From: an uncultured Acetobacteraceae bacterium
Lineage (GTDB): Bacteria > Pseudomonadota > Alphaproteobacteria > Acetobacterales > Acetobacteraceae
Length of the DNA: 64,000 nucleotides
Reading direction: 5' to 3'
Assembly: GCA_964235615.1 (NCBI GenBank)
Contig: CAXSEE010000001.1
Coordinates: forward strand, 200 to 64,199
Both the position numbers and the translations under genes were made by a program. The notes below the pieces were generated by a model. The model did no database searches. It saw only the letters and a program-made list of their open reading frames with translations, and had not been told where the DNA came from. This document shows, piece after piece, positions 44,302 through 63,620 of the stretch (position 1 is the stretch's first letter; each line of letters opens with the position of its first letter).

Positions 44302-44664
44302 TCCATATCCGCTGCCCGTTCACAGCACGCGCCTGACGGTGCGACTGAGCCGGAGCAGCCTCGTCTGCGTCCAGGTCAAAGCCAGTCAGCCGGTCTACCC
44401 AGCGGTAGCTCCGCCTCACATGACCGATGAACAGGCCGGCGAGTGCAACGTTGTTGTTGGATCGAACCCGAACCGATTCCCGGAGTGGGATCAATCGGCC
44501 TTCGCAGGTCTCCCGTTGGTGCGACCCGGCGGCAGCTCGGTCCTCCGCCTTGACATCCTGGGCCTGGACACCGCCCTGTCTTGCCGCATCGTTCCATGCC
44601 GGCTCCGGTAACCGCCTATGGTACTGGAGCGTTAGATTGCCCGACAGGGAAGGTTCCAGGGTTC

Positions 44665-46679: not shown

Positions 46680-47326
46680 GCGATTTCACCCTCGATGAGG
46701 AGCGGACCGGCCGTATCGGCTTCGGCGAGGCGGTGTTCTGCGCCGGCAAGTCGGTGGCGCAGATCGCGTCGATCCTGTCCGCGGCCAAGGCACCGATGCT
46801 GCTGACACGGCTGGAGCCGGAGCGATTTGCCGAATTGCCTGCGACGCAGCGGGATCTTCTCGATTACGATCCGCTCTCCCGCACCGCGTTCTCCGGGGCG
46901 CCGGCCGCACTCGCCGGGCCGGCGCGGATCGCGATCGTCACCGCCGGGACCTCGGACCTGCCGGTGGCGCGGGAAGCCGCCAGGACGCTCGCCTTCAACG
47001 GCCATGACGCGACGCTGATCGCCGATGTCGGCGTGGCCGGCTTGTGGCGGCTGATGCGCCGACTGGAGACATTGCGCAGCGTGCCGGTGCTGATCGTCGC
47101 GGCTGGTATGGATGCCGCACTGCCGAGCGTGATCGGTGGCCTGGTCGCCGGCGTGATCATCGCAGTCCCCACCTCGGTGGGATACGGCGTCGCCGCCGGT
47201 GGTCACACCGCCCTGAACGCCATCCTGGCGAGCTGTGCGCCGGGTATTGTAACCGTCAACATCGATAACGGCTATGGCGCAGCCTGTGCCGCCATGCGCG
47301 TGTTGGGAATGGGATCCGGGGCCTAG
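46676..47326 (+). CDS. larB: Nickel-pincer cofactor carboxylase/hydrolase (PurE-like)
   Basis: R.GFGEAVFCAGK, AGTSDLPVA, DVGVAGLWRL, AGMDAALPSV, PTSVGYG, NIDNGYGAA; ATG 46676. Confidence 0.93.
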   Translation: MSDFTLDEERTGRIGFGEAVFCAGKSVAQIASILSAAKAPMLLTRLEPERFAELPATQRDLLDYDPLSRTAFSGAPAALAGPARIAIVTAGTSDLPVAREAARTLAFNGHDATLIADVGVAGLWRLMRRLETLRSVPVLIVAAGMDAALPSVIGGLVAGVIIAVPTSVGYGVAAGGHTALNAILASCAPGIVTVNIDNGYGAACAAMRVLGMGSGA

Positions 47327-47350
47327 GCTCCACCGATAGGAGAGTTCACC

Positions 47351-49425: not shown

Positions 49426-50726
49426 GCTGGATCAGCCAGGGCCTGGTCGAGATCGGCCAGTATGTCGTCGATATGCTCGATGCCGATCGACAGCCGCACA
49501 TAGCCCGCAGAGACCCCGGTCGAGAGCTGCTCGTCCACGCTGAGCTGGGAATGCGTCGTGCTGGCGGGATGGATCGCCAGCGAACGCGCATCGCCGATAT
49601 TGGCGACATGGTAGAATAGCCGCAGCCGGTCGATGAAGGCGCGGCCTGCTTGCGCACCGCCCTTGAGCTCGAAGCCGAGCAGGCCCCCGCGTCCGCGCGT
49701 CAGATAGGTCTCGCTGCGCTGGCGCGCGATGCCGGCCGGATGATGCGACGGATGGATCACCCGCTGCACCTCGGGATGCCTGGCCAGGAAATTCGCCACC
49801 GCTTCGGCATTCTCGCTGTGGGCGCGCATGCGCAGCGGCAGCGTCTCGATCCCCTGCAGCAGCAAAAAGGCGTTGAATGGCGACAGGGCCGAGCCGAGGT
49901 CGCGCAGCAACGTGGTGCGGGCCTTGAGGATATAGGCGATCGGGCCCAGCGGTGCTGCGGCCTCGGTCCAGATCGCGCCGTGGTAGGAGGGTTCGGGCGT
50001 ATTCAGCGCCGGCTGGCGGTCCGGATACGCGGCCCAGTCGAAATTGCCGCCGTCGATGATCAGGCCGCCGATCGAGTTGCCGTGGCCGCCGAGATACTTG
50101 GTTGCCGAATAGACCACGATGGCGGCGCCATGGTCGAACGGGCGCACCAGCAGCGGGGCGGCGGTGTTGTCGACGATCAGCGGGATGCCCAGCGGCCGTC
50201 CGAGTGCGGCCACCTCGGCGATCGGGAAGCAGCGCAGTTTCGGGTTCGGCAGGGTCTCGGCATACCAGGCGCGGGTGCGCTCGTCGCTGGCGCGCGCGAA
50301 GGCCTCGGGATCCTCGGGATCGACGAAGTGGGTCTCGATGCCCTGGTCGCGCAAGGTGTTGGCGAACAGGTTCCAGGTGCCGCCATAGAGATCGGTCGAG
50401 GAGACGATGTTGTCGCCGGCGCGGGCCAGGTTCTGCACGCTGATCGCCGAGGCCGCCTGACCCGAAGCGAACGCCAGCCCCGCCACGCCGCCCTCCAGCG
50501 CCGCCACCCGCTTCTCCAGCACATCCGTCGTCGGGTTCATGATGCGCGTATAGATGTTGCCCAGCTTCTGCAGGCTGAACAGAGCCGCCGCCTGCTCGGT
50601 GCTCTCGAACTGATACGAGGTGGTCTGGTAGATCGGCACCGCCACGGCGCCGGTGGCCGGGTCCGCACGCCAGCCGGCATGCAGCGCCAATGTCTCGGAT
50701 TTGGGATTGCTGGAGGGCTCGGTCAT
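49422..50726 (-). CDS. metY: O-acetylhomoserine sulfhydrylase / aminocarboxypropyltransferase
   Basis: ETLALHAG, VPIYQTTSY, GNIYTRIMNPT, SATKYLGGHG, HVANIGDARSLAIHPASTTHSQL; ATG 50726. Confidence 0.92.
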   Translation of the reverse strand: MTEPSSNPKSETLALHAGWRADPATGAVAVPIYQTTSYQFESTEQAAALFSLQKLGNIYTRIMNPTTDVLEKRVAALEGGVAGLAFASGQAASAISVQNLARAGDNIVSSTDLYGGTWNLFANTLRDQGIETHFVDPEDPEAFARASDERTRAWYAETLPNPKLRCFPIAEVAALGRPLGIPLIVDNTAAPLLVRPFDHGAAIVVYSATKYLGGHGNSIGGLIIDGGNFDWAAYPDRQPALNTPEPSYHGAIWTEAAAPLGPIAYILKARTTLLRDLGSALSPFNAFLLLQGIETLPLRMRAHSENAEAVANFLARHPEVQRVIHPSHHPAGIARQRSETYLTRGRGGLLGFELKGGAQAGRAFIDRLRLFYHVANIGDARSLAIHPASTTHSQLSVDEQLSTGVSAGYVRLSIGIEHIDDILADLDQALADPA

Positions 50727-50863
50727 TGACCTCGGTCCTATGGGCTGGTGTTGCCGCGGCAGCGCTTGCGGGACGGGAGTGTGGATCTTGTCGCTGCGGA
50801 CATGCAAGTTACCGTATTCGCCGTGTCGCTCCCCGCCCGCGCCAGCCTGGCAGCCCGCTTCCA

Positions 50864-51020: not shown

Positions 51021-51752
51021 ATGTCGCATACCCGTAACGTCGTTCGCCTGACCTTTACCCTGCCGTTCCTGCTTGCCCTGGGCGCTTGCGTCACCCCGCC
51101 GCCGAGCGGGCCGAGCTTCACCGCCCTGCCTGCGGATGGCAAGACCTTCGATCGCTTCTCGGCCGAGGATAATTACTGCCGCCAGGCAGCGCTGAGCCGT
51201 AGCGGCTATTCGGGCAGCAGCGGCGCCAACTCTACCTTGGGCGGCGCTGGCGTTGGAACCCTGGTCGGAGCCGCCGGCGGAGCACTGCTTGGAGCAGCTG
51301 CGGGAAATCCTGGTATCGGTGCGGCGGCAGGAGCAGGGACCGGCCTGCTGTTCGGGTCGGCGATCGGCTCCAACAACGGCTCCTTCGATGAAGCGACCGT
51401 GCAGCATAACTACGATAGCACCTATGCCCAGTGCATAGCCTCATACGGCAACAAGGTGCCTTCCGCCGGACAGATCAGCTCCTATCCTGTCTCCTCCGGT
51501 TATGGCGGCTACGGCGGATATGGCGGTTACGGCGGCTATGGCGGCTACGGCTTCGGTTATGGCGGTTACTACCCGGGCTACGCGTTTGGCTACGGTTATC
51601 CGTTCTTCGGGCCCGGTTTCGGCTACGGCTTCGGCTTCGGTGGTTTCTATGGCCGTGGCTATGGCTATGGTCGTGGTTATGGCGGCGGCTACGGCGGCGG
51701 CTTCCATGGCGGCGGCTTCCATGGTGGTGGTGGAGGTGGTGGCCGCCGCTAG
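51021..51752 (+). CDS. Lipoprotein with glycine-zipper domain and Gly/Tyr/Phe-rich low-complexity tail
   Basis: Lipobox LGAC; GAGVGTLVGAAGGALLGAAAG zipper; (GYG)n and GGGFHGGGFH tail. Confidence 0.8.
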   Translation: MSHTRNVVRLTFTLPFLLALGACVTPPPSGPSFTALPADGKTFDRFSAEDNYCRQAALSRSGYSGSSGANSTLGGAGVGTLVGAAGGALLGAAAGNPGIGAAAGAGTGLLFGSAIGSNNGSFDEATVQHNYDSTYAQCIASYGNKVPSAGQISSYPVSSGYGGYGGYGGYGGYGGYGFGYGGYYPGYAFGYGYPFFGPGFGYGFGFGGFYGRGYGYGRGYGGGYGGGFHGGGFHGGGGGGGRR

Positions 51753-53053
51753 GCTCGGGACGCCGCGACCTCCGGATCCAGCATACGAAGGGCGAGGCTG
51801 AAGAAATCCTCGCCACCGAAATTGCCTGACTTCAGGGCGAGCGTTACACCGGGATGATGCCCCCCCAGTGTGTGCAGCACTGGCACTCCTGGTGCGATCG
51901 CCTCGCCGATCAGGAACGCTTCCAGGCCCAGGCGGTCGACCACGGCGCCGGAGGTCTCCCCGCCGGCGATGACCAGCCGGCTGACGCCGGCCGCGACCAG
52001 CGCCTCCGCGAGATCGGCAAATGCCTGCTCGATCGCATGACCGACGACGCCCGCACCGTGACGCTTCTGCAGCGCCCGCACCGTGTCCGGCGTGCCGCTG
52101 CTGGCGATCAGGACCGGTCCGGAGGACAGCCTCTCCCGCGCCCAGGCCAGTGCCGCCCCAACTTCATTGCCGTCGTCCAGCAGCTTCTCGACATCGAGCC
52201 GGAGGCACGGCATCTCCCGCTCCGCGACCGCGATCTGCCGCAACGTCATGGCCGAGCAACTGCCGGCCAGGATCGCCGCCCTGCCTCCTTGCGGCGGGGC
52301 CGGCCGCTCGACCGCGCTGGATGCGGCACGTGCGGCGCTTCGCGAAACCAGGGCGCGCGCCAGGCTCGAGCCGAGGCCGGACGCTCCGGTGGACAAAGGC
52401 ATGTCGAGTGCGGCTTCACCGATCGCGTCGAGATGGCGCGCGGCCACGGAGTCCGCGATCGCGGAACCCGCCCCCTTCGCGGCGGCCTCGGCGAGCGCCG
52501 CGCGCACGGCTTCAGCGCCGCGCTCGACCACGGCGAACGGCACCAGCGCCACCGGATGCGCGCTCTGCCGTCCCAGCACGCGGACCAGGCTGGAGTCGCG
52601 CATCGGGTTGAGCGGGTGGTCCTTCATCGGGCTCTCGTCGAGCGGCATGTCGCCGACGAACAGACGGCCCTGGAACACGGTCCGGTTGTTCTCGGGAAAT
52701 GACGGATTGACCAGCACGATGCCGCCGCCGGCACGCGCGCGCAGCGCGTCCAGCACCGGGCCGATATTGCCCGCATCGGTCGAGTCGAAGGTCGAGCAGA
52801 TCTTGAACAGGATGTGGGTGGCGCCGCGCGCGCGCAGCCATTGCTCGGCTTCCAGCGACAGCGTCACCGCCTGCGTGGCCGGGATCGAGCGGCTTTTCAG
52901 CGAGACGACGACGGCATCCGCCGCCGGGAGATCGAGGCTGTCCCGCGGCACGCCGATGGTCTGCACGGTGCGCAGGCCGTTCAGCGACAGCATGCTCGCG
53001 AGGTCCGACGCCCCGGTGTAATCATCGGCGATGCAGCCCAGCACGATCTTCAT
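51749..53053 (-). CDS. otnK: 3-oxo-tetronate kinase (four-carbon acid sugar kinase)
   Basis: LGCIADDYTGASD, KSRS, KICSTFDST..GNIGP, GGETSG, LKSGNFG. Confidence 0.92.
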   Translation of the reverse strand: MKIVLGCIADDYTGASDLASMLSLNGLRTVQTIGVPRDSLDLPAADAVVVSLKSRSIPATQAVTLSLEAEQWLRARGATHILFKICSTFDSTDAGNIGPVLDALRARAGGGIVLVNPSFPENNRTVFQGRLFVGDMPLDESPMKDHPLNPMRDSSLVRVLGRQSAHPVALVPFAVVERGAEAVRAALAEAAAKGAGSAIADSVAARHLDAIGEAALDMPLSTGASGLGSSLARALVSRSAARAASSAVERPAPPQGGRAAILAGSCSAMTLRQIAVAEREMPCLRLDVEKLLDDGNEVGAALAWARERLSSGPVLIASSGTPDTVRALQKRHGAGVVGHAIEQAFADLAEALVAAGVSRLVIAGGETSGAVVDRLGLEAFLIGEAIAPGVPVLHTLGGHHPGVTLALKSGNFGGEDFFSLALRMLDPEVAASRA

Positions 53054-53844
53054 GCGCGCGCTCCATCACCTGCGGCGGCAAACGGCTTGAACCAGCCGAG
53101 ACCGTCGAGCGTCGCGCCGCGCGGGCGGTATTCGCAGCCGACGAAGCCGGAATAACCCAGCCGGTCGAGCTCGTCGAACAGGAACGGCCAGTTCAGCTCC
53201 TCGCCGTCCGGCTCATTCCGGGCCGGCACGCTGGCCACCTGGATATGGCCGATGATCGGCATCATGCGGCGCAGGGCCATGCTCAGGTCGCCATGCATGA
53301 TCTGGCGATGGTAGAGGTCGAACTGCAGCTTGAGGTTCGGCAGTGCCAGCTCGTTGATGAGCTGCTCGGCTGCATCAAAGCTGTTGAGGAAATAGCCCGG
53401 CATGTCGCGGCCGTTGATCGGCTCCAGCACGAGGTCGATGTCATACTGCCGCAGCTCCCCAGCGCCATATTCGACCGCGTCGCGATAGGCGTTCCTCGCC
53501 GCCGGATCGTCCGCGGAGGCAATGCCCGCCATCATATGCAGCCGGCCAACGCCGGTGGCGGCGGCATATTCGAGCGCGCGCGATACACTCTGCTTCAGCT
53601 CTGCGGACCGCGCGGGCAGGGCGGCGACACCACGATCGCCGGCAGACCAGTTCCCCGGCGGCATGTTGAACAAGGCCACGGTGAGGTTGTTGCGCCGGAC
53701 CCGCTCGGCCACCCCCTCGGGAGACGCCTCGTAAGGAAACAGGAACTCGACCGCCTCGAATCCGGCGTCGGCTGCGGCATCGAAGCGGTCGAGAAAATCA
53801 TGCTCGTTGAACATCATCGTGAGGTTGGCGGCGAACTGGGGCAT
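53050..53844 (-). CDS. otnI: 2-oxo-tetronate isomerase (hydroxypyruvate isomerase family)
   Basis: MPQFAANLTMMF, EFLFPY, LEPINGRDMPGYF, FDLYH, GCEYRP. Confidence 0.88.
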   Translation of the reverse strand: MPQFAANLTMMFNEHDFLDRFDAAADAGFEAVEFLFPYEASPEGVAERVRRNNLTVALFNMPPGNWSAGDRGVAALPARSAELKQSVSRALEYAAATGVGRLHMMAGIASADDPAARNAYRDAVEYGAGELRQYDIDLVLEPINGRDMPGYFLNSFDAAEQLINELALPNLKLQFDLYHRQIMHGDLSMALRRMMPIIGHIQVASVPARNEPDGEELNWPFLFDELDRLGYSGFVGCEYRPRGATLDGLGWFKPFAAAGDGARA

Positions 53845-53847
53845 CGT

Positions 53848-54804
53848 TCAGGATCCTGGGGTCAAGTCGCCGGAAGGAAGCGACAATCCGGCGATCTGCG
53901 CATAGAGCCGCGCCACCGAGGCGTCGTCGTCCCGTCCCATCCCGGCCGCCGCGGTCATCAGGTACATCTGCAAGGCGGCACCGGCGATCGGTACCGGGAA
54001 CTGCGCCTCGCGGGCCATGTCGATGACGATGCCGAGATCCTTGGTGAAGATGTTGATCGCACTCTTCGGGCTGTAGTCGCCGTCGAGCACGTGGGGGATA
54101 CGGTTCTCGAACATCCAGCTATTGCCTGCGGACTTCGTGATGACTTCGTACACGCGCGCGAGATCGAGCCCTTGCCTCGCGGCGAACGCGATCGCCTCGC
54201 AGGCGGCGGCGATGTGCACCCCAGCCAGGAGCTGGTTCACCATCTTGAACGCCGCTCCTTGCCCCGCGTCCGGACCGAGCTCGTAGAGCGTGCCGGTCAT
54301 CGCATCCAGCGCTGGCCTGGCACGTTCGAAAGCGGCAGCGCTGCCGGATGCGAGCATCGTCAGCGTGCCATCGGCCGCGCGCGCCGCACCGCCGCTCATC
54401 GGCGCGTCGAGATACAGCCGGCCGGTAGCTCCAAGGCGCGCGGCGAGGGAGCGCGCCATGTCGGGTGACATCGTCGCCGACGAGATGAACACCGCCCCTT
54501 CCGGCATGACATCGGCGCAACCGCCGGCACCGAACAGCACGGCTTCGGTCTGGGACGCGTTCACCACCGCGGCGACCACCGCTTCCGCATCGCGTGCGGC
54601 CTCGGCCGGGGTTGCGGCAATGGTGCCTCCCGCTGCCGCCAGGCGTTCGGTCGCGGCGGGCGACACGTCGAAGCCGCTGACGGCAAAACCGCCGCGCAAC
54701 AACGACTGCGCCATGCCGAGACCCATCGAGCCGAGGCCGATCACCGCGGCGCGGCGCTTGCTGTCTGGCCGATCGGCCGGTTCGGTGCGATGCTGCTGCG
54801 TCAT
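53848..54804 (-). CDS. ltnD: L-threonate dehydrogenase (beta-hydroxyacid dehydrogenase family)
   Basis: GLGSMG, DAPMSGG, KMVNQLLAGVHI, AGNSWMFENR, IFTKDLGIV; clustered with otnIK. Confidence 0.88.
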   Translation of the reverse strand: MTQQHRTEPADRPDSKRRAAVIGLGSMGLGMAQSLLRGGFAVSGFDVSPAATERLAAAGGTIAATPAEAARDAEAVVAAVVNASQTEAVLFGAGGCADVMPEGAVFISSATMSPDMARSLAARLGATGRLYLDAPMSGGAARAADGTLTMLASGSAAAFERARPALDAMTGTLYELGPDAGQGAAFKMVNQLLAGVHIAAACEAIAFAARQGLDLARVYEVITKSAGNSWMFENRIPHVLDGDYSPKSAINIFTKDLGIVIDMAREAQFPVPIAGAALQMYLMTAAAGMGRDDDASVARLYAQIAGLSLPSGDLTPGS

Positions 54805-54848
54805 GCGGACTTCCTTCCTGGGGGGATGCTCAAGATGGGACGATCATC

Positions 54849-55514
54849 GTGACCGAGACCAAGCTTCGCGAACAGATCTGCATGTTCTCCCGTTCCCTGT
54901 TCGAGCGCGGGCTGACCGCCGGATCGTCCGGCAACATCAGCCTGCGTCTCGAGGATGGCGGCTGGCTGATGACGCCGACCAACGCCTCGCTCGGCTTTCT
55001 CGATCCGGCCAGGCTGTCGCGGCTCGATGCGCAAGGACAGCTCGTGTCCGGCGACCCGCCGAGCAAGGAGATCCCGCTGCACCAGGCTCTGTACGAGACA
55101 CGGGCAAAGGCCGGCGCGATCGTGCATCTGCATTCGGTGCATTCGGTGGCGGTGTCCATGCTGCCGGAGATCGACCAGGCCGACGTGCTGCCGCCGCTGA
55201 CCGCCTATTACGTCATGCGCGTCGGTGCCACCGCGCTGGTGCCGTACTATCGCCCGGGCGATCCCGCGGTCGCCGGCGCGATACGCGGTCTCGCCGGACG
55301 CTACTCCGCCGTGCTGCTGGCCAACCACGGACCGGTGGTGGCCGGCGCCACTTTGGAGGCGGCAATCTATGCCACCGAGGAACTGGAAGAGACCGCGCGG
55401 CTGTATCTGATGCTGCGCGGCCTCAATCCCCGCCAACTGACGCAGGCGCAGGTAGACGACCTGGTGACCCGTTTCGGGATCGAGTTGCCTGGTCATGACG
55501 GGGACAGCGCCTAG
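54849..55514 (+). CDS. otnC: 3-oxo-tetronate 4-phosphate decarboxylase (class II aldolase family)
   Basis: GSSGNIS, TPTNASLG, SKE, HLHS, LANHGPV, ELEETA; GTG start. Confidence 0.88.
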   Translation: MTETKLREQICMFSRSLFERGLTAGSSGNISLRLEDGGWLMTPTNASLGFLDPARLSRLDAQGQLVSGDPPSKEIPLHQALYETRAKAGAIVHLHSVHSVAVSMLPEIDQADVLPPLTAYYVMRVGATALVPYYRPGDPAVAGAIRGLAGRYSAVLLANHGPVVAGATLEAAIYATEELEETARLYLMLRGLNPRQLTQAQVDDLVTRFGIELPGHDGDSA

Positions 55515-56407
55515 CCGGAGGTTTTGACGTATTGGCGCCAGTTATGCTTCTCCTTGAAGTGAAGCATTTCCCGCACCTTCTTGTTCGACAGCAGCCCCTC
55601 ATACTCGCCAAGCTCGCCGCGCCCTGGGACATTGGGATAATAGCGGCGCAGCAGCTCGGCGGTCGGCAGGTCAGACGAGGTGTGGTCGTTGGCGGCGTTG
55701 AACACCTGGTAGCCGAGCCCGTCCGTCTCGATGCCGAGACGCACGATCTCGCCCAGGTCACGGGCGTCGATATAGCTCCAGGCGATCTTCTTGCGGAAGT
55801 CCGGCTTGGCGAACCAGCCAGGGAACAACGCATACTCGCTGGGCTCAACCACGTTGCCGATACGCAGCGCGTAGATGTCGGTGCCGTTGCGTAGCTGGAA
55901 GCCGCGCGCGGTGCGCTCGTTGCAGATCTTGGAGATGGCGTAGCTGTCCATCGGGTCGACCGGATATTCCTCGTCGAGCGGGAAATAATCCGGCTCGCGC
56001 GGGGTGTTGGCGAACACGACGCCGTAGGTGGTCTCGCTGGAGGCGATGATCACCTTCGGGATGCCGAACTTGGTCGCCGCGTCGAGCACGTTGTAGGTGC
56101 CCATCACGTTGATGCGATAGACCTCGTTGTCCGGCACGATCATGACGCGCGGAATGGCCGCGAAATGCACCACCGCGTCGATCTTCGGCGCGCGCAGGTC
56201 GGGGTCGAACTCATGCAGCCCGGTATAGGACGAGAATGCGTTGAACAGCTGGCCGGCATCGGTGATGTCGGTGATCAGCGTGCGCACCTTGGGATGGTCG
56301 AGCGGCTTCGTGTCGATGTTCAGGACATGGTAGCCCTGCTCCACCAGATATTGCACGACGTGACGTCCGGCCTTGCCGCTGCCGCCCGTGAACAGAATTT
56401 GCTTCAT
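55511..56407 (-). CDS. Extended SDR (NAD-dependent epimerase/dehydratase family)
   Basis: TGGSGKAG, VVHFAAIP, ASS, YxxxK (YAISK). Confidence 0.85.
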   Translation of the reverse strand: MKQILFTGGSGKAGRHVVQYLVEQGYHVLNIDTKPLDHPKVRTLITDITDAGQLFNAFSSYTGLHEFDPDLRAPKIDAVVHFAAIPRVMIVPDNEVYRINVMGTYNVLDAATKFGIPKVIIASSETTYGVVFANTPREPDYFPLDEEYPVDPMDSYAISKICNERTARGFQLRNGTDIYALRIGNVVEPSEYALFPGWFAKPDFRKKIAWSYIDARDLGEIVRLGIETDGLGYQVFNAANDHTSSDLPTAELLRRYYPNVPGRGELGEYEGLLSNKKVREMLHFKEKHNWRQYVKTSG

Positions 56408-56431
56408 GCGCTGGGTTCCTCTTTTCGCTGA

Positions 56432-57427
56432 TCAGAAGTGGTAGTTGTCGATGTTGGTCTTGTCGAACACCAGCGGCTCGCTGAACACGATCACCCGGTC
56501 CTTGGCGGTGAAGCTGCCGAGGTCGCCGGCGGTAAAGGTGCCGTCCGGCTGGATCGCATTGTTGGCCGCCAGCCGTGCCACATACATCACCAGCTCGCCT
56601 TCCTTGACCTCGTCCCAGAGCGGGCTCTCGCGGATGATGCCGGACTTCACGTACTGCCGGATCGAATCCGGATCGCTGCAGCCGGTGACGAAAACCTTCC
56701 CGGTCATGCCGAGTTTCTCGACCGCTGCCGCCGCGCCGACTTCGGCGGCACCATCCGGGGCAATGATGCCGGTCACCTGCGGGTTGGCCTGCAGGATGTT
56801 CAATCCGGCGGTCAGCGACTGTGACGGGCTGGACTGGCCATACTGGGTGGTGACGATCTTCATCTTCGGATAGGCGCTGGTCATGTAGGTCTTCAGCGCG
56901 CCGATCCACTCGTTCTGGATGGTCGCGTCCGGCGTCGAGGACAGGATCGCGACCTGTGCGTCCGGGCCGGTGTATTTGGCGACCGCGTCGACCAGAGCCT
57001 TGCCGTGTGCGGCATAGTTGGTGTTCTGGATGAAGAAGTCGCGGGCGTCGGCGGCGACGTCGCTGTCATACGACACCACCTTGATCCCCTGCTTGCGCGC
57101 GCGCCTCAGGGCAGGAGCGAGCTGGGTCGGGTTATTCGAGGTGGTGGTGATCACGTTGAAGCGGCGGGCGATCAGGCTGTTGAACACATCGACCTGCCCC
57201 TGCGCCGACGCCGTGACCGGTCCGGTGTAGAGAAAGTTGATGTTGAGCGACTTGGCAGCCGTCTGGGCGCCCTGCTCATTGGCCTTGAAGACCGACAGCC
57301 CGACCAGTTTCGGCACCATGGCAACCTTGATGGCCTTGCTGGTATCGATGTCTGCGGCATTGGCTGCGGCGACGCTGCCGAGCAGCAACGGCAACGCGGC
57401 GATGCCGGCTTTGGTAATCCTGTTCAT
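56432..57427 (-). CDS. Sugar ABC binding protein, LsrB/RhaS-like
   Basis: Signal peptide to ANA, MVPKLVG, GIKVVSYDSD, ILSSTPDATIQNEW, LWD; ATG 57427. Confidence 0.85.
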   Translation of the reverse strand: MNRITKAGIAALPLLLGSVAAANAADIDTSKAIKVAMVPKLVGLSVFKANEQGAQTAAKSLNINFLYTGPVTASAQGQVDVFNSLIARRFNVITTTSNNPTQLAPALRRARKQGIKVVSYDSDVAADARDFFIQNTNYAAHGKALVDAVAKYTGPDAQVAILSSTPDATIQNEWIGALKTYMTSAYPKMKIVTTQYGQSSPSQSLTAGLNILQANPQVTGIIAPDGAAEVGAAAAVEKLGMTGKVFVTGCSDPDSIRQYVKSGIIRESPLWDEVKEGELVMYVARLAANNAIQPDGTFTAGDLGSFTAKDRVIVFSEPLVFDKTNIDNYHF

Positions 57428-57462
57428 GGCTCCCGATCTTTTCTTCTGTTTGTGAAGGGTGA

Positions 57463-58449
57463 TCACGCCGGCTTGCGGCGCGTGAGACGGCCGAGCAGCA
57501 GGGCGAACCCGGTGCCTCGGCCGGCAAGGGTATTCTTGATGGCGATCGCGGCGAGCAGGATGGCGCCCGTCAGCATCGTGGTCAGCATGTCGGAGAAGCC
57601 GGCGATCAGCATGCCCTGGCGCAGGAAGCCGAGCACCAGCACGGCGATCACGACGCCGAAGATGCTGCCCTCGCCGCCGAAGATGCTGACCCCGCCGAGC
57701 ACGACCATGGTGATCGTGCTGAGCAGCAGCACGTCGCCCATGTCGGCGCGCACGGCGCTGTAATAGGCGGCGAGCACGATGCCGGCGAGGGCGGCCATTG
57801 CCCCGCTGATGACGTAGGCGCCGACCAGGATGCGATCGACCCGCACGCCGGAGTAGCGCGCAGCGTCCGGGTTGTAGCCGACCATGACGATCTTGCGGCC
57901 GAACTTGCTGCGCGACATCACCAGGCTGAACAGGATGGCCAGCACGGCGAACAACAGGATCTGGTACGGCAGGATGTCGGCGATGGCGCCGGCGCCGAGC
58001 TGGTTGAAGCTGTCCGGAAAGCCCGAAGGAGGCGTGTCGCCGGCGAGTGCTGTGGCCAGGCTGCCGTAGATGAAGCTGGTCGCCAGGGTCGCGATCAGCG
58101 GCTCGATGCGCAGCCGGGTGATGATCAGGCCGTTGACCGCGCCGAGGACCGCGCCCGAGACGATGCCGATCAGCGCGGACAGCCAGATCGAGAGATGCAG
58201 GCCGCTCCACAACTCGGCCATGAAGATCGCCGACAGACCCGCGGTGGCGCCAACCGAGAGATCGATCCCGCCGGTCAGGATGACGGTGGACAGACCCAGC
58301 GCCACCAGTCCGAACGGCAGGAAATTCTCGGTCAGGGCCAGGAAGCTTCCGAACCCGGAGTAGAAGCCCGGCACTGCGGCGATCAGCACCGCCAGCAGCA
58401 ACACGAGGAGCGCGATCAGCGACCGTTCCCAGCCCTTGGAACCGCTCAT
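57463..58449 (-). CDS. Sugar ABC permease (LsrD/RhaQ-like)
   Basis: GGIDLSVG, ARYSG, VVLGGVSIFGG.G. Confidence 0.9.
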   Translation of the reverse strand: MSGSKGWERSLIALLVLLLAVLIAAVPGFYSGFGSFLALTENFLPFGLVALGLSTVILTGGIDLSVGATAGLSAIFMAELWSGLHLSIWLSALIGIVSGAVLGAVNGLIITRLRIEPLIATLATSFIYGSLATALAGDTPPSGFPDSFNQLGAGAIADILPYQILLFAVLAILFSLVMSRSKFGRKIVMVGYNPDAARYSGVRVDRILVGAYVISGAMAALAGIVLAAYYSAVRADMGDVLLLSTITMVVLGGVSIFGGEGSIFGVVIAVLVLGFLRQGMLIAGFSDMLTTMLTGAILLAAIAIKNTLAGRGTGFALLLGRLTRRKPA

Positions 58450-58450
58450 C

Positions 58451-59482
58451 TCAATGTGCCCCCGCGGCTTGCTGGCGACGGCCGGCAGCCACCGTGACGA
58501 GGATCATGAGCCCTTCGCCGGCCGAGTACCAGATCGGCGGCACATGCACGAACACCAATGCCGTCAGCACCACGCTGAGGAACATGCTGCCGAGCACGGT
58601 GCCGATCATCGAGGCACGGCCGCCGGCGATCGCGGTGCCGCCGATCAGCGCGACCGCGATCGACTGCAATTCCATATGGTCGCCGGTCCCGGTGGTGACG
58701 GTGGCCGAGCCGGTATAGCAGAGGAACATCAGGCCGGAGAGTGCGGCGAGCACGCCGGACAGGGCATAGACGCGCACCTGGGTCGAGGTCACCGAGATGC
58801 CGGCGTTGTAGGCGGCGGCCTGGTTGTTGCCGATCGCCAGCACGGCGCGTCCGAACCGGGTGTGGGACAGCATGAACCAGGTCAGCAGCAGCACCACGCC
58901 GAGCACCACCACCGGGATCGGGATCGGCAGGAAAGGGGCTATGACGCCATTGCCGAGCACGCCGTATGCGTGTGGCACGCTGTCGACCTGGGTGCCGTTC
59001 GAATAGATGAAGATCAGGCCGCTATAGAGGCTGTAGGTACCGAGCGTGGTGATGATCGGCGGGATCACCAGCTTTGCCACGAGAAAGCCGTTGATGGTGC
59101 CGAGCACGAGCCCGATCACGAGTGCCACGCCGAACGCGCCGATGAGCGGCAGGCCGCTGCCCTGCGCCAGCAATCCGGTGACTACGGCGGTCAGGCCCAG
59201 CACGGGGGCTACCGAAAGATCGATGCCGCGCGTGGCGATAACCAGAGTCTGGCCCAGCGCCAGCAGCGACAGCACCACCGAGTTGAGCAGCATGAAGTGC
59301 AGGTTCTGCACCGACATGAAGTTGTGCCGGAACAGGCTGATGATCAGGATGGTCGCCGCGGTCGCGATCAGCAGCGTGATCTCGCGACGCTCGCGACGAC
59401 GGCCGCGAACCGAAACCTTGGAAGCCGCCGGACGCGACGCTGCCTGCGACAGTGCCATGCCCTGCAAGGAGGCGGGCTTCAT
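58451..59482 (-). CDS. Sugar ABC permease (LsrC/RhaP-like)
   Basis: RGIDLSV, PPIITTLG, ELQSIAVALIGG. Confidence 0.9.
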   Translation of the reverse strand: MKPASLQGMALSQAASRPAASKVSVRGRRRERREITLLIATAATILIISLFRHNFMSVQNLHFMLLNSVVLSLLALGQTLVIATRGIDLSVAPVLGLTAVVTGLLAQGSGLPLIGAFGVALVIGLVLGTINGFLVAKLVIPPIITTLGTYSLYSGLIFIYSNGTQVDSVPHAYGVLGNGVIAPFLPIPIPVVVLGVVLLLTWFMLSHTRFGRAVLAIGNNQAAAYNAGISVTSTQVRVYALSGVLAALSGLMFLCYTGSATVTTGTGDHMELQSIAVALIGGTAIAGGRASMIGTVLGSMFLSVVLTALVFVHVPPIWYSAGEGLMILVTVAAGRRQQAAGAH

Positions 59483-61008
59483 GCCGCGATCCCGGCGTGG
59501 CTGAGATAGGAGTGTCCGACACGGTCCGGCGTGATCTGGTCGCCGCTGAGTTCGGCGACGATACGGCCCTCATATACCGACAGGATGCGGTCGCAGAGAC
59601 GGACCAGCTCCTCCATCTCCGACGAGATCACCAGGATCGCCATGCCCGCCTTCGCAAGTCCTTCGATCAGCTCGTAGATCTCGTCCTTGGCGCCGACATC
59701 GACGCCGCGTGTCGGCTCGTCGAGGATCGCGACCTTTGGCGACAGGCCCATCCATTTCCCGAACACGACCTTCTGCTGGTTGCCGCCGGAGAGCTGCCGC
59801 AGGGTCTGGTCGATGCCGGCGCAACGGACGCGATACTGCGCCACGGTCTCGGTGCCGATGCTGTTCTCGTGGTTCCGGTCGATCAGCCCGAAGCGCTGAC
59901 GGACCCGGTCGAGCAGGCCGGAAGTCAGGTTCTCGGTGATGGTCATCGGCAGCACGGCGCCATGACGCGCGCGGTCTTCCGGCGCATAGACCAGACCCTT
60001 GCGTATGATCGCGTTGGTGGACAGGCCGGAGATATCCTCCTCGCCCAGGGTGATGCGCCCCGCGTCGCGCGTGCGGATGCCGAAGATCGTCTCGGCGATT
60101 TCCGTGCGTCCGGCGCCGACCAGCCCGGCCAGGCCGAGGATCTCGCCCTTGTGCAGGGTGAAGCCGATGTCGCGGAAGCGTGGCTCGTGTTGCAGGCCTT
60201 CGACACGCAGGGCGGCCGTGCCGGTGGCCGAACTCCACGTGCGTCGGGGGATCACGCGCATCTCGCGCCCGACCATCTGCGACATCAACCGGACCCGGTC
60301 GAACTCCGGCCGCTCGACGCTGTCGACCAGCACGCCGTCGCGCAGGATGCTGATGTCGTCGCTGATGTCGAGCACCTCGTCCATGCGGTGGCTGATGAAG
60401 CCGAGCGTGCAGCCGTCGTCACGCAGACGGCGCATGATGCCGAACAGATGCTCGACCTCGTGCGTGGTCAGCGGCGAGGTCGGCTCGTCGAACAGGATCA
60501 CCCGGCAGCCGCGCAGCAGGGCCTTGGCGCATTCCACCTGCTGCTGCTGGGCGATCGACAGATGCCGGGCCTGCTGGTTCACGTCGATGTCGAGATTGAG
60601 CGAGGCCAGCGCGTCGGCCGCGCGCTTGCGGGCCTGCGCCCAGTCGATGCGCGGGAGCAGGCGGCCGGCGGTCGGCAACTGGCCGACGAACATCGTCTCG
60701 GCCACGCTGAGCTCCGGCATCAACGCCGGTTCCTGCGGCACCAGATAGATGCCGTGGGCATGGGCGACCTGCGGGCTGTCGAGCGAGAGCGGGGCGTCGC
60801 CGAGCAGAAGCTGGCCGGCGGTGGGACGCACCAGCCCTGACAGGATCTTGAACAAGGTGGATTTGCCGGCGCCGTTCTCGCCCATCATCGTGTGCACGCG
60901 GCCAGGACGTAGCGACAGGCTGACGCCGCGCAGCACCGCGACGCTGGCGTAGTTCTTGGTGATGCCGACTGCCTGATAAATGCCCTGTGTCGTCATGTCA
61001 TGCGGCAT
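59479..61008 (-). CDS. Sugar ABC ATPase (RbsA/LsrA-like, two domains)
   Basis: GENGAGKST, DEPT, LSGGNQQK, DEPTRGVDVGAK; ATG 61008 after GGAG. Confidence 0.92.
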   Translation of the reverse strand: MPHDMTTQGIYQAVGITKNYASVAVLRGVSLSLRPGRVHTMMGENGAGKSTLFKILSGLVRPTAGQLLLGDAPLSLDSPQVAHAHGIYLVPQEPALMPELSVAETMFVGQLPTAGRLLPRIDWAQARKRAADALASLNLDIDVNQQARHLSIAQQQQVECAKALLRGCRVILFDEPTSPLTTHEVEHLFGIMRRLRDDGCTLGFISHRMDEVLDISDDISILRDGVLVDSVERPEFDRVRLMSQMVGREMRVIPRRTWSSATGTAALRVEGLQHEPRFRDIGFTLHKGEILGLAGLVGAGRTEIAETIFGIRTRDAGRITLGEEDISGLSTNAIIRKGLVYAPEDRARHGAVLPMTITENLTSGLLDRVRQRFGLIDRNHENSIGTETVAQYRVRCAGIDQTLRQLSGGNQQKVVFGKWMGLSPKVAILDEPTRGVDVGAKDEIYELIEGLAKAGMAILVISSEMEELVRLCDRILSVYEGRIVAELSGDQITPDRVGHSYLSHAGIAA

Positions 61009-61087
61009 CGAGCCGTCTCCCGGATAGATCCCTGAGTGGTCTGCGCACCTCTTTATGAACGGGCGCGCTGTGCCACCGGTTGACCGG

Positions 61088-61101
61088 TGGTAGCGCAACC
61101 A
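61088..61101. promoter_or_regulatory. LacI-family operator 1, TGGTAGCGCAACCA
   Basis: Near-palindrome with central CG in the divergent promoter of the LacI gene. Confidence 0.75.
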
Positions 61102-61116
61102 TTATCGGCAAACCTT

Positions 61117-61130
61117 TGGTAGCGCAACCA
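61117..61130. promoter_or_regulatory. LacI-family operator 2, TGGTAGCGCAACCA
   Basis: Identical copy starting 29 bp after operator 1. Confidence 0.75.
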
Positions 61131-61156
61131 TGGATTTTCGGTTACGCTGCCCCAGG

Positions 61157-62194
61157 ATGATCACGAATCAAACAGCGAGCCGCCGGCGTACGCATGAAGG
61201 TGCCGTGACGCTCAAGCATGTTGCCGAGCGCGCAGGTGTCGCGCCGATCACGGTTTCACGCGCATTGAATGCGCCGCAGAGCGTTTCGGCGGCTTTGCGC
61301 ACGCAGATCGAGGTCGCGGTGGCCGATCTCGGCTACGTGCCGAACCGCTTTGCCGGCGCGCTGGCGTCCGCCGACAGCCGGATCATCCCGGTGATCGTGC
61401 CGTCGCTGTCGAACGCCGTGTTCATCGAGGTCATCCAGGGCATCCAGGAGGTGCTGGAGGCCGAGCAGTATCAACTGCTGCTGGGCAACACGCAGTATGA
61501 CCTGGCCCGAGAGGCGGAGCTGGTGTCGACCCTGCTGGGCTGGTCGCCGGCAGGGCTGATCCTGGCCGGGCTGCGTCATACCGAGCGCACCGGGCGCGTG
61601 CTGCGGAACTATGCCCGGCCGGTGGTCGAGATCATGGAGTATGGGCCGAGGCCGATCGACATGAATGTCGGGCTGTCGCATCTGCGGGCCGGGGAGACCA
61701 TGGGCGAGCATCTGATCGCGCGCGGCTATCGCCAGATCGGCTTCGTCGGCGGCCGGCTGGAAGCCGACTACCGCGCGGCGCAGCGCTTCAAGGGGCTCGA
61801 TCGCGCCATCACGCGCGCCGGGCTGCAGCGGCGTCCGCCCTATGGTCATGCGGAAAAATCGAGTGCCGGCCTGGGCGGAGACAAATTGCTGGAGGTCCTG
61901 GCGCAAACGCCGGAGCTCGATGCGCTGTTTTTCGCCAATGACGATCTTGCGGTGGGCGCATTGCTGCGCGCGCAACGCGAGGGCATCGACGTGCCGGGCC
62001 GCGTCGCCATCGCCGGGTTCAACGGCCTCGCGATCGGCGCGTTGACGACGCCCGCGCTCACCTCGATCGTCTCGCCGCGGCAGCAGATCGGCGAGACCGC
62101 CGCGCGCAAGCTGCTGGCGCGCATCCAGGGCAAACCCGCCGGACCGCTGCGCGTCGATGTCGGTTATCGCCTGGAAGTTCGTTCGAGCACCTAG
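61157..62194 (+). CDS. LacI-family regulator (GntR/IdnR-like subgroup)
   Basis: VTLKHVAERAGVAPITVSRALN, LGYVPN, FANDDLAVG, IAGFNG, LTSI; start uncertain (61130, 61157 or 61206). Confidence 0.9.
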   Translation: MITNQTASRRRTHEGAVTLKHVAERAGVAPITVSRALNAPQSVSAALRTQIEVAVADLGYVPNRFAGALASADSRIIPVIVPSLSNAVFIEVIQGIQEVLEAEQYQLLLGNTQYDLAREAELVSTLLGWSPAGLILAGLRHTERTGRVLRNYARPVVEIMEYGPRPIDMNVGLSHLRAGETMGEHLIARGYRQIGFVGGRLEADYRAAQRFKGLDRAITRAGLQRRPPYGHAEKSSAGLGGDKLLEVLAQTPELDALFFANDDLAVGALLRAQREGIDVPGRVAIAGFNGLAIGALTTPALTSIVSPRQQIGETAARKLLARIQGKPAGPLRVDVGYRLEVRSST

Positions 62195-62217
62195 CAACAT
62201 CGTTGGAGGACATACTC

Positions 62218-63111
62218 ATGGCAGAGAAGATCGGTTTCATCGGCCTCGGCTGGATGGGTCACGGCATGGCGAAGAACATCGTCGAGAAGGGGTTCCCGCT
62301 CACCGTGCTCGCGCACCGCAAGCGCGATGCGATCGAGGACCTCAAGCAGCGCGGCGCCAGCGAGGTCACGTCGGCCCGGGCGCTCGCGGAAGCCTGCGAC
62401 ATCGTCCTGCTTTGCGTGACCGGCAGCGTGCAGGTCGAGGCCCTTCTTACCGGACCGGAAGGGCTGGCCTCCGCGGGCAAGAAGCTGCTGGTGATCGACT
62501 GCTCGACCTCGGAGCCGGCGATCACGACGCGGCTCGCCGGCGCGCTGGCCGAGACGGGCATCACCCTGATCGACGCCCCGCTCAGCCGCACCCCGAAGGA
62601 AGCCTGGGCCGGCACGCTCGACGTGATGGTCGGCGGCGCGCCGGAGGATGTCGAGCGTGCCCGTCCGGTGCTGGAGACGTTCGCCGGGCGCATCGTCGAG
62701 ACCGGCGGCACCGGGACCGCGCACATGATGAAGCTGCTGAACAACTTCGTCTCGCTCGGCTACGCGGCGGTCTATGCCGAAGCCCTGATGATGGGGGCGA
62801 AGGCGGGCGTGTCCGAGCAGACCTTCCACGACGTGGTCCGCGGCGGGCGCATGGATTGCCCGTTCTTCCAGACCTTCTTCGAGTATGTGGTCGGCGGCAA
62901 CCGCGACGCGCACAAGTTCACGCTGAACAACGCGCTGAAGGACCTGACATACCTGTCGAACTTCGCCAATGCGAGTGCTGCGGCAAACCCGGTCGGTGCC
63001 GCGGTCCGCAACAGCTTTGCGCTGGCGATCGGCGCGGGTCGTGGCGAGGATTACGTGCCGATGCTGACGGATGTGGTGGCATCCGCGAACGGCGTGCCGC
63101 GGGGCAAGTAG
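62218..63111 (+). CDS. Beta-hydroxyacid (3-hydroxyisobutyrate-family) dehydrogenase
   Basis: GFIGLGWMG, DCSTSEP, DAPLSRTP, KLLNNF, KD; ATG 62218 after GGAGG. Confidence 0.88.
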   Translation: MAEKIGFIGLGWMGHGMAKNIVEKGFPLTVLAHRKRDAIEDLKQRGASEVTSARALAEACDIVLLCVTGSVQVEALLTGPEGLASAGKKLLVIDCSTSEPAITTRLAGALAETGITLIDAPLSRTPKEAWAGTLDVMVGGAPEDVERARPVLETFAGRIVETGGTGTAHMMKLLNNFVSLGYAAVYAEALMMGAKAGVSEQTFHDVVRGGRMDCPFFQTFFEYVVGGNRDAHKFTLNNALKDLTYLSNFANASAAANPVGAAVRNSFALAIGAGRGEDYVPMLTDVVASANGVPRGK

Positions 63112-63116
63112 CGGGC

Positions 63117-63620
63117 ATGACCGAACCCGAAAGCCTGCTGCTGAAGGCGAACGGCTGGACGGCGAACAATCCCATGCTGCCGGTGCTGATCTATCGGAGG
63201 GCGGTCGAAGCCGGAGACCCGCCGGCGTGCGAGGAGCGCCTCCGCCGCAATGGCTGGCGTCCGGACTGGCGCGACGGCGTGTACCCGTTCCACCATTATC
63301 ACTCGACCGCGCATGAAGCACTGGCCTGCACCGCCGGCGAGGCCACGTTGATGCTGGGCGGCGAGGATGGGCGCCAGGTCGGCATCGCGGCAGGCGATCT
63401 GCTCGTGCTGCCGGCGGGCACGGGACATTGCCGGATCGCGCTGAGCCCGGATTTCCTGCTGGTCGGCGCCTATCCGGACGGGCAGCATTGGGACATCTGC
63501 CGCACGGCTGCCGACGAGGAGACGCGCCGCCGGATCGCTCAGGTCCCGCTGCCCTCGGCTGATCCGGTCGATGGCAGGAACGGGGTGCTGTTGCAGCTCT
63601 GGCGGCACGGGAGCGCGTAG
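63117..63620 (+). CDS. Cupin-domain protein (YjlB-like)
   Basis: NNP.LPVLIYR, HHYHSTAHE, LPAGTGHCR, LVGAYP.G. Confidence 0.85.
   Translation: MTEPESLLLKANGWTANNPMLPVLIYRRAVEAGDPPACEERLRRNGWRPDWRDGVYPFHHYHSTAHEALACTAGEATLMLGGEDGRQVGIAAGDLLVLPAGTGHCRIALSPDFLLVGAYPDGQHWDICRTAADEETRRRIAQVPLPSADPVDGRNGVLLQLWRHGSA

Follow-up and report, generated by a model that had tools for sequence, protein, structure and literature searches.

The window (the whole stretch of DNA analysed here, 64,000 nucleotides in length) stems from a soil- or lichen-dwelling Acetobacteraceae bacterium and harbors a conserved, jointly regulated island in which an L-threonate breakdown route is combined with a sugar-type importer and an uncharacterised dehydrogenase (Table 1). 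All genes named in the earlier note are present, but otnC does not follow otnK; it is plus-strand and sits between ltnD and the gene of the SDR, an inverted placement that is kept in approximately 40 loci. The start of otnK overlaps the stop of otnI by 4 bp, and otnC, which begins with GTG, overlaps the SDR gene by 4 bp with its tail and is separated from ltnD by 44 bp at its head. A minus-strand ORF of 231 aa (54801-55496) was discarded as a shadow of otnC without any family match, and the ORFs 56432-58210, 59479-61098, and 61130-62194 proved too long, with overcalled starts. The start of the ATPase gene was reset to an in-frame ATG at 61008 that is preceded by GGGAGA, and lacI, as read from the sequence, starts with GTG at 61205. 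The cupin gene belongs to one transcript with lacI and the second dehydrogenase gene. An inverted-repeat finder, a promoter scan, and a terminator scan of the region returned nothing useful. The nickel-pincer enzyme that had also been connected with the island shows synteny with it in close relatives only.

Table 1. Features of the island, with positions in the window.
Feature	Position	Strand	Evidence
otnK, 3-oxo-tetronate kinase (DUF1537)	51749..53053	-	NF043035, 541 bits (cut-off 350)
otnI, 2-oxo-tetronate isomerase	53050..53844	-	NF043033, 368 bits (cut-off 325)
ltnD, L-threonate 2-dehydrogenase	53848..54804	-	NF043037, 440 bits (cut-off 350)
otnC, 3-oxo-tetronate 4-phosphate decarboxylase	54849..55514	+	NF043034, 333.8 bits (cut-off 250); Aldolase_II
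Orphan extended SDR, predicted NAD-dependent, 298 aa	55511..56407	-	PF01370
Periplasmic binding protein (SBP), LsrB/RhaS-like, separate family	56432..57427	-	Signal peptide; RhaS/LsrB below cut-off
ABC permease, LsrD-like	57463..58449	-	BPD_transp_2
ABC permease, LsrC-like	58451..59482	-	BPD_transp_2
ABC ATPase, two nucleotide-binding domains, CUT2 type	59479..61008	-	Profile matches
Operator TGGTAGCGCAACCA, two exact copies in the divergent promoter region	61088-61101 and 61117-61130 (span 61088..61130)	.	
LacI-family repressor, putative GntR/IdnR (aldonate-sensing) type	61205..62194	+	Pseudomonas GntR model NF052440, 377 bits (cut-off 400); IdnR, 259 bits
Second beta-hydroxyacid dehydrogenase, not LtnD	62203..63111	+	LtnD model, 145 bits (cut-off 350)
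Metal-binding monocupin	63117..63620	+	HxHxxxxE and GxxH motifs; Cupin_2

The L-threonate pathway

OtnK, OtnI, LtnD, and OtnC each pass the cut-off of the respective NCBIfam equivalog model. OtnK comprises PF07005 and PF17042 (SBD_N and NBD_C) and is, according to a profile search, the sole OtnK of the genome, and OtnC belongs to the class II aldolase fold (PF00596). [quoted passage not shown] 2016 in PNAS. Judged by their sequences, the four enzymes together constitute this known route from L-threonate to DHAP and CO2, which consists of LtnD or DenD, OtnI, OtnK, and OtnC (PMC12994016, PMC10580937). The idea that OtnI is dispensable where a cluster lacks otnI was rejected, since the gene is found elsewhere in three of four such genomes.

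Conservation and regulation

The SBP and SDR genes were found together with otn genes in 47 of the 80 loci fetched, which belong to Alpha- and Gammaproteobacteria as well as one betaproteobacterial MAG bin; taxa with the block include Acetobacteraceae, Hyphomicrobiales, Rhodobacterales, and Luteibacter. Among sampled Acetobacteraceae that carry the binding protein, the two genes are adjacent in ten of twelve. Clustering of the extra ORFs of the cluster-bearing loci (approximately 50) yielded no further conserved gene and no lactonase. The hosts are concentrated in lichen-, plant-, and acid-soil-associated genera, a distribution that may indicate that carbon from ascorbate serves as a nutrient in these niches.

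The 14 bp operator TGGTAGCGCAACCA is an imperfect palindrome, two copies of which precede the importer genes. In relatives, its core is found at the same place (41 matches) and, in the loci of 11 of them, additionally between otnC and ltnD. As the block recurs and the operator is shared, this is not a chance neighbourhood, and the proposal that importer, SDR, and Otn enzymes act as a single conserved functional unit was borne out; likewise, the suspected co-regulation of the ABC and otn genes by LacI is backed by the shared operator in relatives. In the window itself, however, no copy with up to three mismatches is present near ltnD or otnC, which counts against the island model. The repressor is a putative member of the GntR/IdnR subgroup, its score of 377 bits lying below the equivalog cut-off of 400; further hallmarks of this subgroup are a palindromic operator with GCGC core and an aldonate effector. 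Both GntR and IdnR are aldonate sensors.

The binding protein and its candidate ligands

With 229.6 bits on the RhaS model (TIGR02637, cut-off 342) and 206 bits on that of LsrB (cut-off 384), the binding protein reaches neither cut-off. Its identity to binding proteins for AI-2 and rhamnose is approximately 35-40%; at the LsrB contact positions, it keeps K35, D116, Q167, and P220, with D166 replaced by Ile and A222 by Gly. The LsrB criteria of Pereira et al. comprise six contacts (K35, D116, D166, Q167, P220, and A222), an identity of more than 60% with LsrB of Salmonella, and the presence of a full lsr operon, and proteins substituted at D166 and A222 form the group that these authors found not to bind AI-2 (PMC3386761). 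Since this signature fails, AI-2 is an unlikely ligand. Apiose, a candidate of the earlier note, gives no route to tetronates.

It is thus very improbable that the importer is a genuine uptake system for AI-2 (Lsr) or rhamnose with the otn genes as mere neighbours, even though ‘autoinducer 2 ABC transporter substrate-binding protein’ is the label of several orthologues in NCBI and UniRef and the best-scoring named models are LsrA/C/D/B and RhaS. Every one of these scores remains under its curated cut-off, the otn linkage is kept in the 47 loci with the operator shared, and, as the earlier note had stated for lsrK/F/G and rhamnose enzymes, the region from 51.7 to 63.6 kb contains neither lsrK/F/G/R nor rha genes. 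On these grounds, the protein was rejected both as the AI-2 receptor LsrB and as RhaS. A whole-genome search for LsrK returned generic FGGY kinases only, without an LsrK-level match, and is weak, as the E. coli control likewise stayed under the cut-off.

Lys48, which is Thr in LsrB, is invariant in the family. With D166 lost and this lysine gained, the charge of the pocket appears shifted toward an anion, assuming from the alignment that Lys48 lies near the ligand. To our knowledge, no CUT2 binding protein has been solved with an aldonate. In two species (G342 and G580), the importer is fused directly to ltnD-otnI-otnK; the SDR gene is not part of the operon, and otnC-denD are located elsewhere.

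The orphan dehydrogenase

On the DenD model NF043036, the SDR scores a mere 24.6 bits (cut-off 325), as compared to 381.7 bits for the true DenD of the same genome (C43:12709-13671), with which it shares 23% identity over 171 residues. By this profile check, the SDR is not a known DenD, an identity that the earlier note had named, jointly with direct uptake of threonate by the binding protein, as refuting its own proposal. A function as DenD replacement was ruled out as well, since a true DenD is encoded alongside in nine of eleven SDR-bearing genomes. Equally, by sequence, the SDR is not Ltn3D: it is of the extended type (PF01370, TGxxGxxG, 298 aa, Asp32), whereas Ltn3D is characterised by a classical SDR fold of approximately 250 aa with an Arg33-Arg34 NADP site, and no Ltn3D is among its 51 PDB matches, the best of which scores 52 bits. 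Invariant in the family are TGxxGxxG, Asp32, Ser123/124, and Tyr156-Lys160, the Asp predicting a preference for NAD. Udh (50.7 bits) and Azf (55.6 bits) score about as well as any other protein, the similarity being limited to the Rossmann half. An AF2 model (pLDDT 76, low in the catalytic loops) retrieved GalE/WbmG-type epimerases as top Foldseek hits with a TM of approximately 0.6, which is generic and in no way diagnostic, and an Atlas lookup of the SDR and the cupin gave generic names only.

Members of the SDR family are 64-96% identical across Proteobacteria and one Bacillota genome, and rare (three of 400 sampled alphaproteobacteria). All seven proteobacterial genomes with an unlinked SDR copy encode OtnK, against a base rate of 39 in 400, and the loci L020 and L051 combine the SDR with otn genes in the absence of the ABC system. 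Together with the co-occurrence with DenD, this suggests that the SDR tracks the otn genes and not the importer. In locus L045, the SBP-SDR adjacency is kept without otn genes, and a tartrate dehydrogenase gene follows that of the SDR. A Halalkalibacter homologue (65% identical) is found within a transketolase/kinase/CUT1 sugar cluster; stand-alone homologues in Labrys, Paraburkholderia, Dongiaceae, and MFD alphaproteobacteria have unrelated neighbours.

Conceivably, the system could feed on a neutral tetrose: the SBP would bind an L-tetrofuranose (L-threose, perhaps L-erythrose), the SDR would oxidise it at C1 to L-threono-1,4-lactone or L-threonate, and LtnD-OtnI-OtnK-OtnC would complete its breakdown. 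We regard this reading, which corresponds to the main idea of the earlier note, as a serious alternative, albeit less probable than direct import of a sugar acid. It would account for the resemblance of the SBP to AI-2 and rhamnose binders with four contacts kept, for the adjacency of SBP and SDR genes, which is the rule and persists in L045 even without otn genes, for an SDR that is as similar to the C1-oxidising Udh and Azf as to GalE, and for the neutral-sugar surroundings of the Halalkalibacter homologue; furthermore, stereochemical reasoning suggests that L-threofuranose equals R-THMF minus the methyl group and one hydroxyl with the same ring-CHOH configuration, which fits the exchange of D166 for Ile. 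Uptake and catabolism of tetroses are as yet undescribed (PMC12780249). However, free tetroses are scarce in nature, no lactonase is present across approximately 50 loci, the regulator appears to be of an aldonate-sensing type, the SDR is missing from the operons of G342 and G580, as is the importer from L020 and L051, and a racemase-family neighbour (see below) points to a carboxylate or lactone substrate.

Still less probable is a more far-reaching variant, a first bacterial route for free L-tetroses as C4 ascorbate debris, in which the SBP would bind L-threofuranose, the SDR would act as tetrose 1-dehydrogenase to give L-threonate, and the cupin and second dehydrogenase would bring in L-erythrulose or tetruronate. 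In such an L-tetrose reading, L-threofuranose would represent a des-methyl, mono-deoxy AI-2 analogue, and many proteins of soil and lichen bacteria that are annotated as ‘AI-2 receptor’ would be nutrient receptors.

Accessory genes

The second dehydrogenase shares 27% identity with LtnD and, given its score on the LtnD model (Table 1), is not a member of that family; roughly half of the related loci contain it, at variable positions. The cupin has an intact 3-His-1-Glu site, its nearest relative being quercetinase (C-domain, 30 bits). It is encoded in six of eight other SDR-bearing genomes as compared to 17 of 400 sampled, eight of these 17 also having OtnK (31 of 383 otherwise), and in G342 it adjoins the SDR homologue beside a GST-family gene. 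In the 80 related loci, no cupin gene was found.

These genes could point to scavenging of ascorbate debris, with import of dehydroascorbate or a hydrated cyclic product that the SDR, the cupin (as reductone dioxygenase or isomerase), and the second dehydrogenase would convert, or L-erythrulose or tetruronate in its stead, to L-threonate. Hydrated keto-furanoses are bound by LsrB-type pockets, and the quercetinase-like site, the co-occurrence of the cupin with OtnK and the SDR, its neighbourhood in G342, the tartrate dehydrogenase of L045, and the lichen, plant, and acid-soil association of the hosts are all in line with this idea. Nevertheless, we consider it improbable, as the cupin is missing from all 80 related loci, the conserved core lacks a C-C cleaving enzyme, GST genes are ubiquitous, and every step is conjectural.

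In approximately 18 loci, the SDR gene is followed by an Asp/Glu-racemase-family gene (carboxylate-alpha-carbon superfamily), which has no PDB relative and was not found in the present genome (93% complete).

Proposed route

The reading that we tentatively prefer, at somewhat less than even confidence, is one of direct uptake, in which L-threonate or related C4 sugar acids are the solutes of the importer and the SDR serves as an undescribed entry dehydrogenase, the third of its kind. The type of regulator, the lack of a lactonase, the racemase neighbour, the fusion of importer and ltnD, and the pocket charge all lean toward direct import, and the import of a neutral precursor with subsequent oxidation to a tetronate, as envisaged in the earlier note, found no support. 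Threonolactone requires a lactonase in vivo (PMC10079672), and two different L-threonate dehydrogenases within one Paracoccus cluster provide a precedent (PMC12994016).

In the preferred scheme, the GntR/IdnR-type repressor would bind both TGGTAGCGCAACCA operators and control two divergent operons, lacI-dehydrogenase-cupin on one side and ATPase-permease-permease-binding protein-SDR on the other. Transcription probably continues past the SDR gene, antisense through otnC, and into ltnD-otnI-otnK, because a terminator is lacking and the genes overlap by 4 bp after the SDR. The CUT2 importer would most likely take L-threonate and/or a stereoisomer (D-threonate, L-erythronate), or its lactone. The SDR, which differs from LtnD, DenD, Ltn3D, and ApnO and would be a third kind of dehydrogenase at the entry, may oxidise an isomer that the others cannot use, or act at C3 directly to give 3-oxo-tetronate for OtnK, and in relatives the racemase-family enzyme encoded beside it might correct the configuration at C2. 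Several observations count against this scheme: the characterised relatives of the binding protein all take neutral ligands (AI-2, rhamnose), Asp116 is still in its pocket, the SDR gene directly behind the SBP gene occupies the usual place of the first enzyme to act on an imported solute, its sequence affinity to C1-oxidising Udh and Azf appears as high as to anything else, and the Halalkalibacter homologue sits in a sugar cluster.

Significance and comparison with known systems

We know of only four described entries into the Otn pathway, namely LtnD, DenD, Ltn3D, and ApnO. The field is active, as two of these date from 2026. An NAD-specific threonate 3-dehydrogenase was reportedly described in Pseudomonas as early as 1964. 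The island adds three uncharacterised parts, i.e., a conserved orphan SDR family, a binding-protein family mislabelled as AI-2 receptor, and a defined operator, and the substrate of the SDR could mark an undescribed way into the L-threonate pathway. Any outcome would be new, whether it turned out to be a D-threonate/L-erythronate route via OtnK, a threonate 3-dehydrogenase specific for NAD, or a tetrose pathway, which would be the first.

With the known L-threonate/D-erythronate clusters, the island shares ltnD, otnI, otnK, and otnC and, as in the Brucella otn cluster, genes for a regulator, a transporter, and one more dehydrogenase lie alongside. In contrast, this additional dehydrogenase differs from DenD (24.6 bits, 23% identity), import relies on a CUT2 ABC system instead of TRAP or MFS, the regulator is LacI/GntR-type instead of DeoR, and otnC is inverted inside the unit. 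LsrB/RhaS and CUT2 transporters (PDB 1TJY, 5GTA, 4PZ0, 4KVF) have the same fold family and four-gene layout, but here linkage to tetronate genes replaces that to Lsr or Rha catabolic genes, and the invariant Lys48 is additional. Udh (PDB 3RFT) and Azf-type sugar 1-dehydrogenases are likewise extended or atypical SDRs that depend on NAD, are similar in size, and use free sugars as substrates, whereas the orphan SDR is without a lactonase partner. Finally, Ltn3D, the L-threonate 3-dehydrogenase of Paracoccus litorisediminis (PDB 9X6I; PMC12994016), belongs to the classical SDRs, prefers NADP, and has Asn106-Ser136-Tyr149-Lys153 as its tetrad, and ApnO, a bypass for D-erythronate (PMC13753588), is KARI-like, in contrast to the present extended SDR with its Asp and predicted use of NAD; yet in all three cases an extra dehydrogenase is clustered with LtnD, OtnI, OtnK, and OtnC, so that an additional entry or bypass step has a precedent.

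Gene content and layout of the island

The ORFs at 51.7-63.6 kb of the high-GC window were subjected to family scans, with bit scores read against the curated cut-offs (see the table below). All genes named in the earlier note were borne out by the family scans; corrections were required for the strand and place of otnC and for three ORF starts. The three long ORFs were rejected as called, their true starts having been overcalled (61008 for the ATPase, a GTG at 61205 for LacI), and a 231-aa minus-strand ORF at the otnC position is a shadow of otnC and was discarded as a gene.

Genes of the otn island (window positions; bits versus curated cut-off where available)
Feature	Position	Strand	Basis
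otnK	51749-53053	-	541 bits vs cut-off 350
otnI	53050-53844	-	368 bits vs cut-off 325
ltnD	53848-54804	-	440 bits vs cut-off 350
otnC	54849-55514	+	334 bits vs cut-off 250
extended SDR	55511-56407	-	family scan
binding protein	56432-57427	-	family scan; Sec signal peptide
permease 1	57463-58449	-	family scan
permease 2	58451-59482	-	family scan
double-domain ATPase	59479-61008	-	family scan; start read from sequence
LacI repressor	61205-62194	+	family scan; GTG start read from sequence
second beta-hydroxyacid dehydrogenase	62203-63111	+	family scan
metal cupin	63117-63620	+	family scan

Located between the SDR and ltnD, otnC occupies the opposite strand of an otherwise minus-strand unit, tail-to-tail with the SDR (4-bp overlap) and head-to-head with ltnD. 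As only 44 bp separate otnC from ltnD, the promoter of each must fall within the coding region of the other; this inverted arrangement is kept in about 40 loci. The ABC genes and the SDR are closely linked, with 1-35 bp of spacing or overlap from one gene to the next, and the lacI, second dehydrogenase and cupin genes form one operon, their intergenic distances being only 8 and 5 bp. A glycine-zipper (OmpA-like lipoprotein) gene convergent with otnK (51021-51752) and a gene for a Cys/Met-metabolism PLP enzyme (49422-50807) between the island and a nickel operon are conserved with the island in close relatives only.

Conservation and gene partners

The island is a conserved unit and not a random juxtaposition of genes. 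With each species represented by one genome, 80 loci with SDR homologues (64-95 % identity) were retrieved, and 47 of these carry the binding protein-SDR pair together with the otn genes in the same order, the inverted otnC included. The carriers encompass Acetobacteraceae (Lichenicoccus, Lichenicola, Acidisoma, and many MAGs) as well as Lichenihabitans, Lichenibacterium, a Methylobacterium MAG, Allgaiera, Luteibacter, and one Janthinobacterium MAG. Among 300 sampled Acetobacteraceae queried with the binding protein, it was present in 12 besides the source genome and directly followed by the SDR in ten of these. Clustering of the remaining ORFs of the cluster-bearing loci revealed no further widely conserved gene, lactonase included. 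In about 18 loci, a gene of the Asp/Glu/hydantoin racemase family (~230 aa; e. g., L024:10923-11618, L046:10912-11595), which the window's island lacks, directly follows the SDR. Its product retains the first catalytic Cys, invariant in an NCCSS motif, and the usual second-Cys position reads AQVSM; it could thus act either as a one-base epimerase or as a decarboxylase. No PDB relative was found.

The earlier note had also speculated that a nearby pincer enzyme acts on related sugars. The larC-larE-larB-AKR(-NiCoT) nickel-pincer operon (44581-49425) does neighbour the island in four closely related genomes, which looks more like synteny within the lineage than like an established functional connection. 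Loci noted for this operon or AKR context are L003, L011, L012, L018, and L043, and an Acidisoma MAG encodes an AKR (54 % identity) after otnK.

The SDR family is rare (three of 400 sampled alphaproteobacteria), and OtnK exceeds its cut-off in all seven proteobacterial genomes with an unlinked SDR copy against a base rate of 39/400 (Fisher p ~9e-4, for the sampled subset only and with related genomes not being independent). Two loci (L020, L051) combine the SDR with otn genes and are missing the importer; in two genomes (G342, G580) ltnD-otnI-otnK are joined directly to the importer in an arrangement that lacks the SDR, and an otnC-denD pair lies elsewhere. In one genome (G385), the SDR lies immediately beside a homologue (47.5 %) of the second dehydrogenase. 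The cupin family occurs in 6/8 other SDR-bearing genomes versus 17/400 sampled, and in G342 a cupin (52 % to that of the window) stands in a string with a GST-family protein, an SDR homologue (60 %), and a VanA-type Rieske oxygenase (L097:7841-11362), which adjoins a transposase. A variant in which ascorbate debris is the substrate and the cupin participates appears improbable. In Acidisoma sp. L85 (L045:8935-12062), binding protein (80 %) and SDR (79 %) form a trio with a tartrate dehydrogenase that follows them (TIGR02089, 567 bits vs cut-off 470); this trio adjoins an integrase, and otn genes are absent nearby.

Regulation

Two exact copies of the imperfect palindrome TGGTAGCGCAACCA (61088-61101 and 61117-61130) lie within the 196-bp divergent region, and a search of the whole window gave no other close match. 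With one mismatch allowed, its 12-bp core occupies the equivalent position in almost every relative (41 matches); 11 loci, those of Luteibacter and Lichenicola among them, have it between otnC and ltnD as well. The co-regulation of ABC and otn genes on which the earlier note relied is thus supported in relatives, but no operator copy was found at otnC/ltnD in the window; here, the link would likeliest be read-through from the SDR, since no terminator was found. The LacI repressor reaches 377 bits (cut-off 400) on the model for GntR of Pseudomonas and 259 on that for IdnR, both of which are aldonate sensors.

Identity of the SDR

Among named proteins, the SDR is closest to those of Lichenicoccus (93 % to L. 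roseus). Treated as unassigned in the earlier note, it is indeed distinct from DenD, an assignment we rejected: it reaches 24.6 bits with the model for DenD (cut-off 325) and shares 23 % identity, in the Rossmann half only, with the true DenD of the source genome, which resides on another contig (G000 contig 43, 12709-13671; L091:8680-9672; 381.7 bits). DenD and the SDR occur together in nine of the 11 genomes tested; the SDR is therefore not a DenD replacement. Downstream of the genome's DenD lies a 310-aa xylose-isomerase-like TIM barrel (L091:7751-8683) that no NCBIfam model matched. A D-ribonate module of the Rib2D/OrnI type has been mentioned (PMC13753588), and this pair might be such a module instead of DenD proper.

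Invariant in the SDR family are TGxxGxxG, Asp32, Ser123/124, and Tyr156-Lys160, with Asp32 predicting a preference for NAD. The best solved relatives (archaeal GalE-like proteins, uronate dehydrogenase) score only ~50 bits, and a fold search returned generic neighbours.

Binding protein and likely substrate

The binding protein is about as similar to LsrB as to RhaS structures (157-180 bits). In full-length LsrB numbering, K35, D116, Q167, and P220 are kept, whereas D166 is replaced by Ile and A222 by Gly, i. e., two of the six AI-2 contact residues differ in this protein and its orthologues. Substitutions at exactly these positions mark an LsrB-like group that does not bind AI-2 (PMC3386761). 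Uptake of AI-2 or rhamnose is very improbable, and the name 'autoinducer 2 ABC transporter substrate-binding protein' carried by several orthologues in public databases probably reflects systematic misannotation. Ile170 and Lys48 are invariant across 14 family members, the latter position being Thr in LsrB and Asp in RhaS; if, as the alignment suggests, Lys48 lines the pocket, the net charge of the pocket would shift from -1 to +1.

The earlier note proposed that an upstream substrate such as a tetrose is imported and oxidised to a tetronate. Uptake of a neutral tetrose would agree with the known ligands of the transporter family, the adjacency of binding protein and SDR, the affinity of the latter to Udh/Azf, and, by our own stereochemical reasoning, the fit of L-threofuranose to the AI-2 scaffold. 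The Halalkalibacter context points the same way: a 65 % SDR copy there has as neighbours a split transketolase, a CUT1 transporter, genes for a glycerol-kinase-like protein and a DkgA-like reductase, and a classical SDR. We nonetheless consider this scenario less likely and tentatively favour a reading in which a C4 sugar acid is itself imported and the SDR is an extra tetronate dehydrogenase. This reading draws on the natural abundance of L-threonate, the aldonate-type regulator, the carboxylate-type racemase-family neighbour, the putative charge shift of the pocket, and the modular independence of importer and SDR, each of which stays with otn genes. It is also favoured by the missing lactonase, given that threonolactone use requires one in vivo (PMC10079672).

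Comparison with known systems

Our literature search found no paper on the SDR family, the binding-protein family, or the island, and tetrose uptake and catabolism were stated to be unknown in 2025 (PMC12780249). Paracoccus provides a precedent for the sugar-acid reading, with two threonate dehydrogenases in one cluster. Its Ltn3D is a classical SDR that prefers NADP (PMC12994016) and ApnO is KARI-like (PMC13753588), neither of which resembles the SDR of the window. The four Otn enzymes are in themselves ordinary; what is new is the importer-SDR-regulator module grafted onto them.
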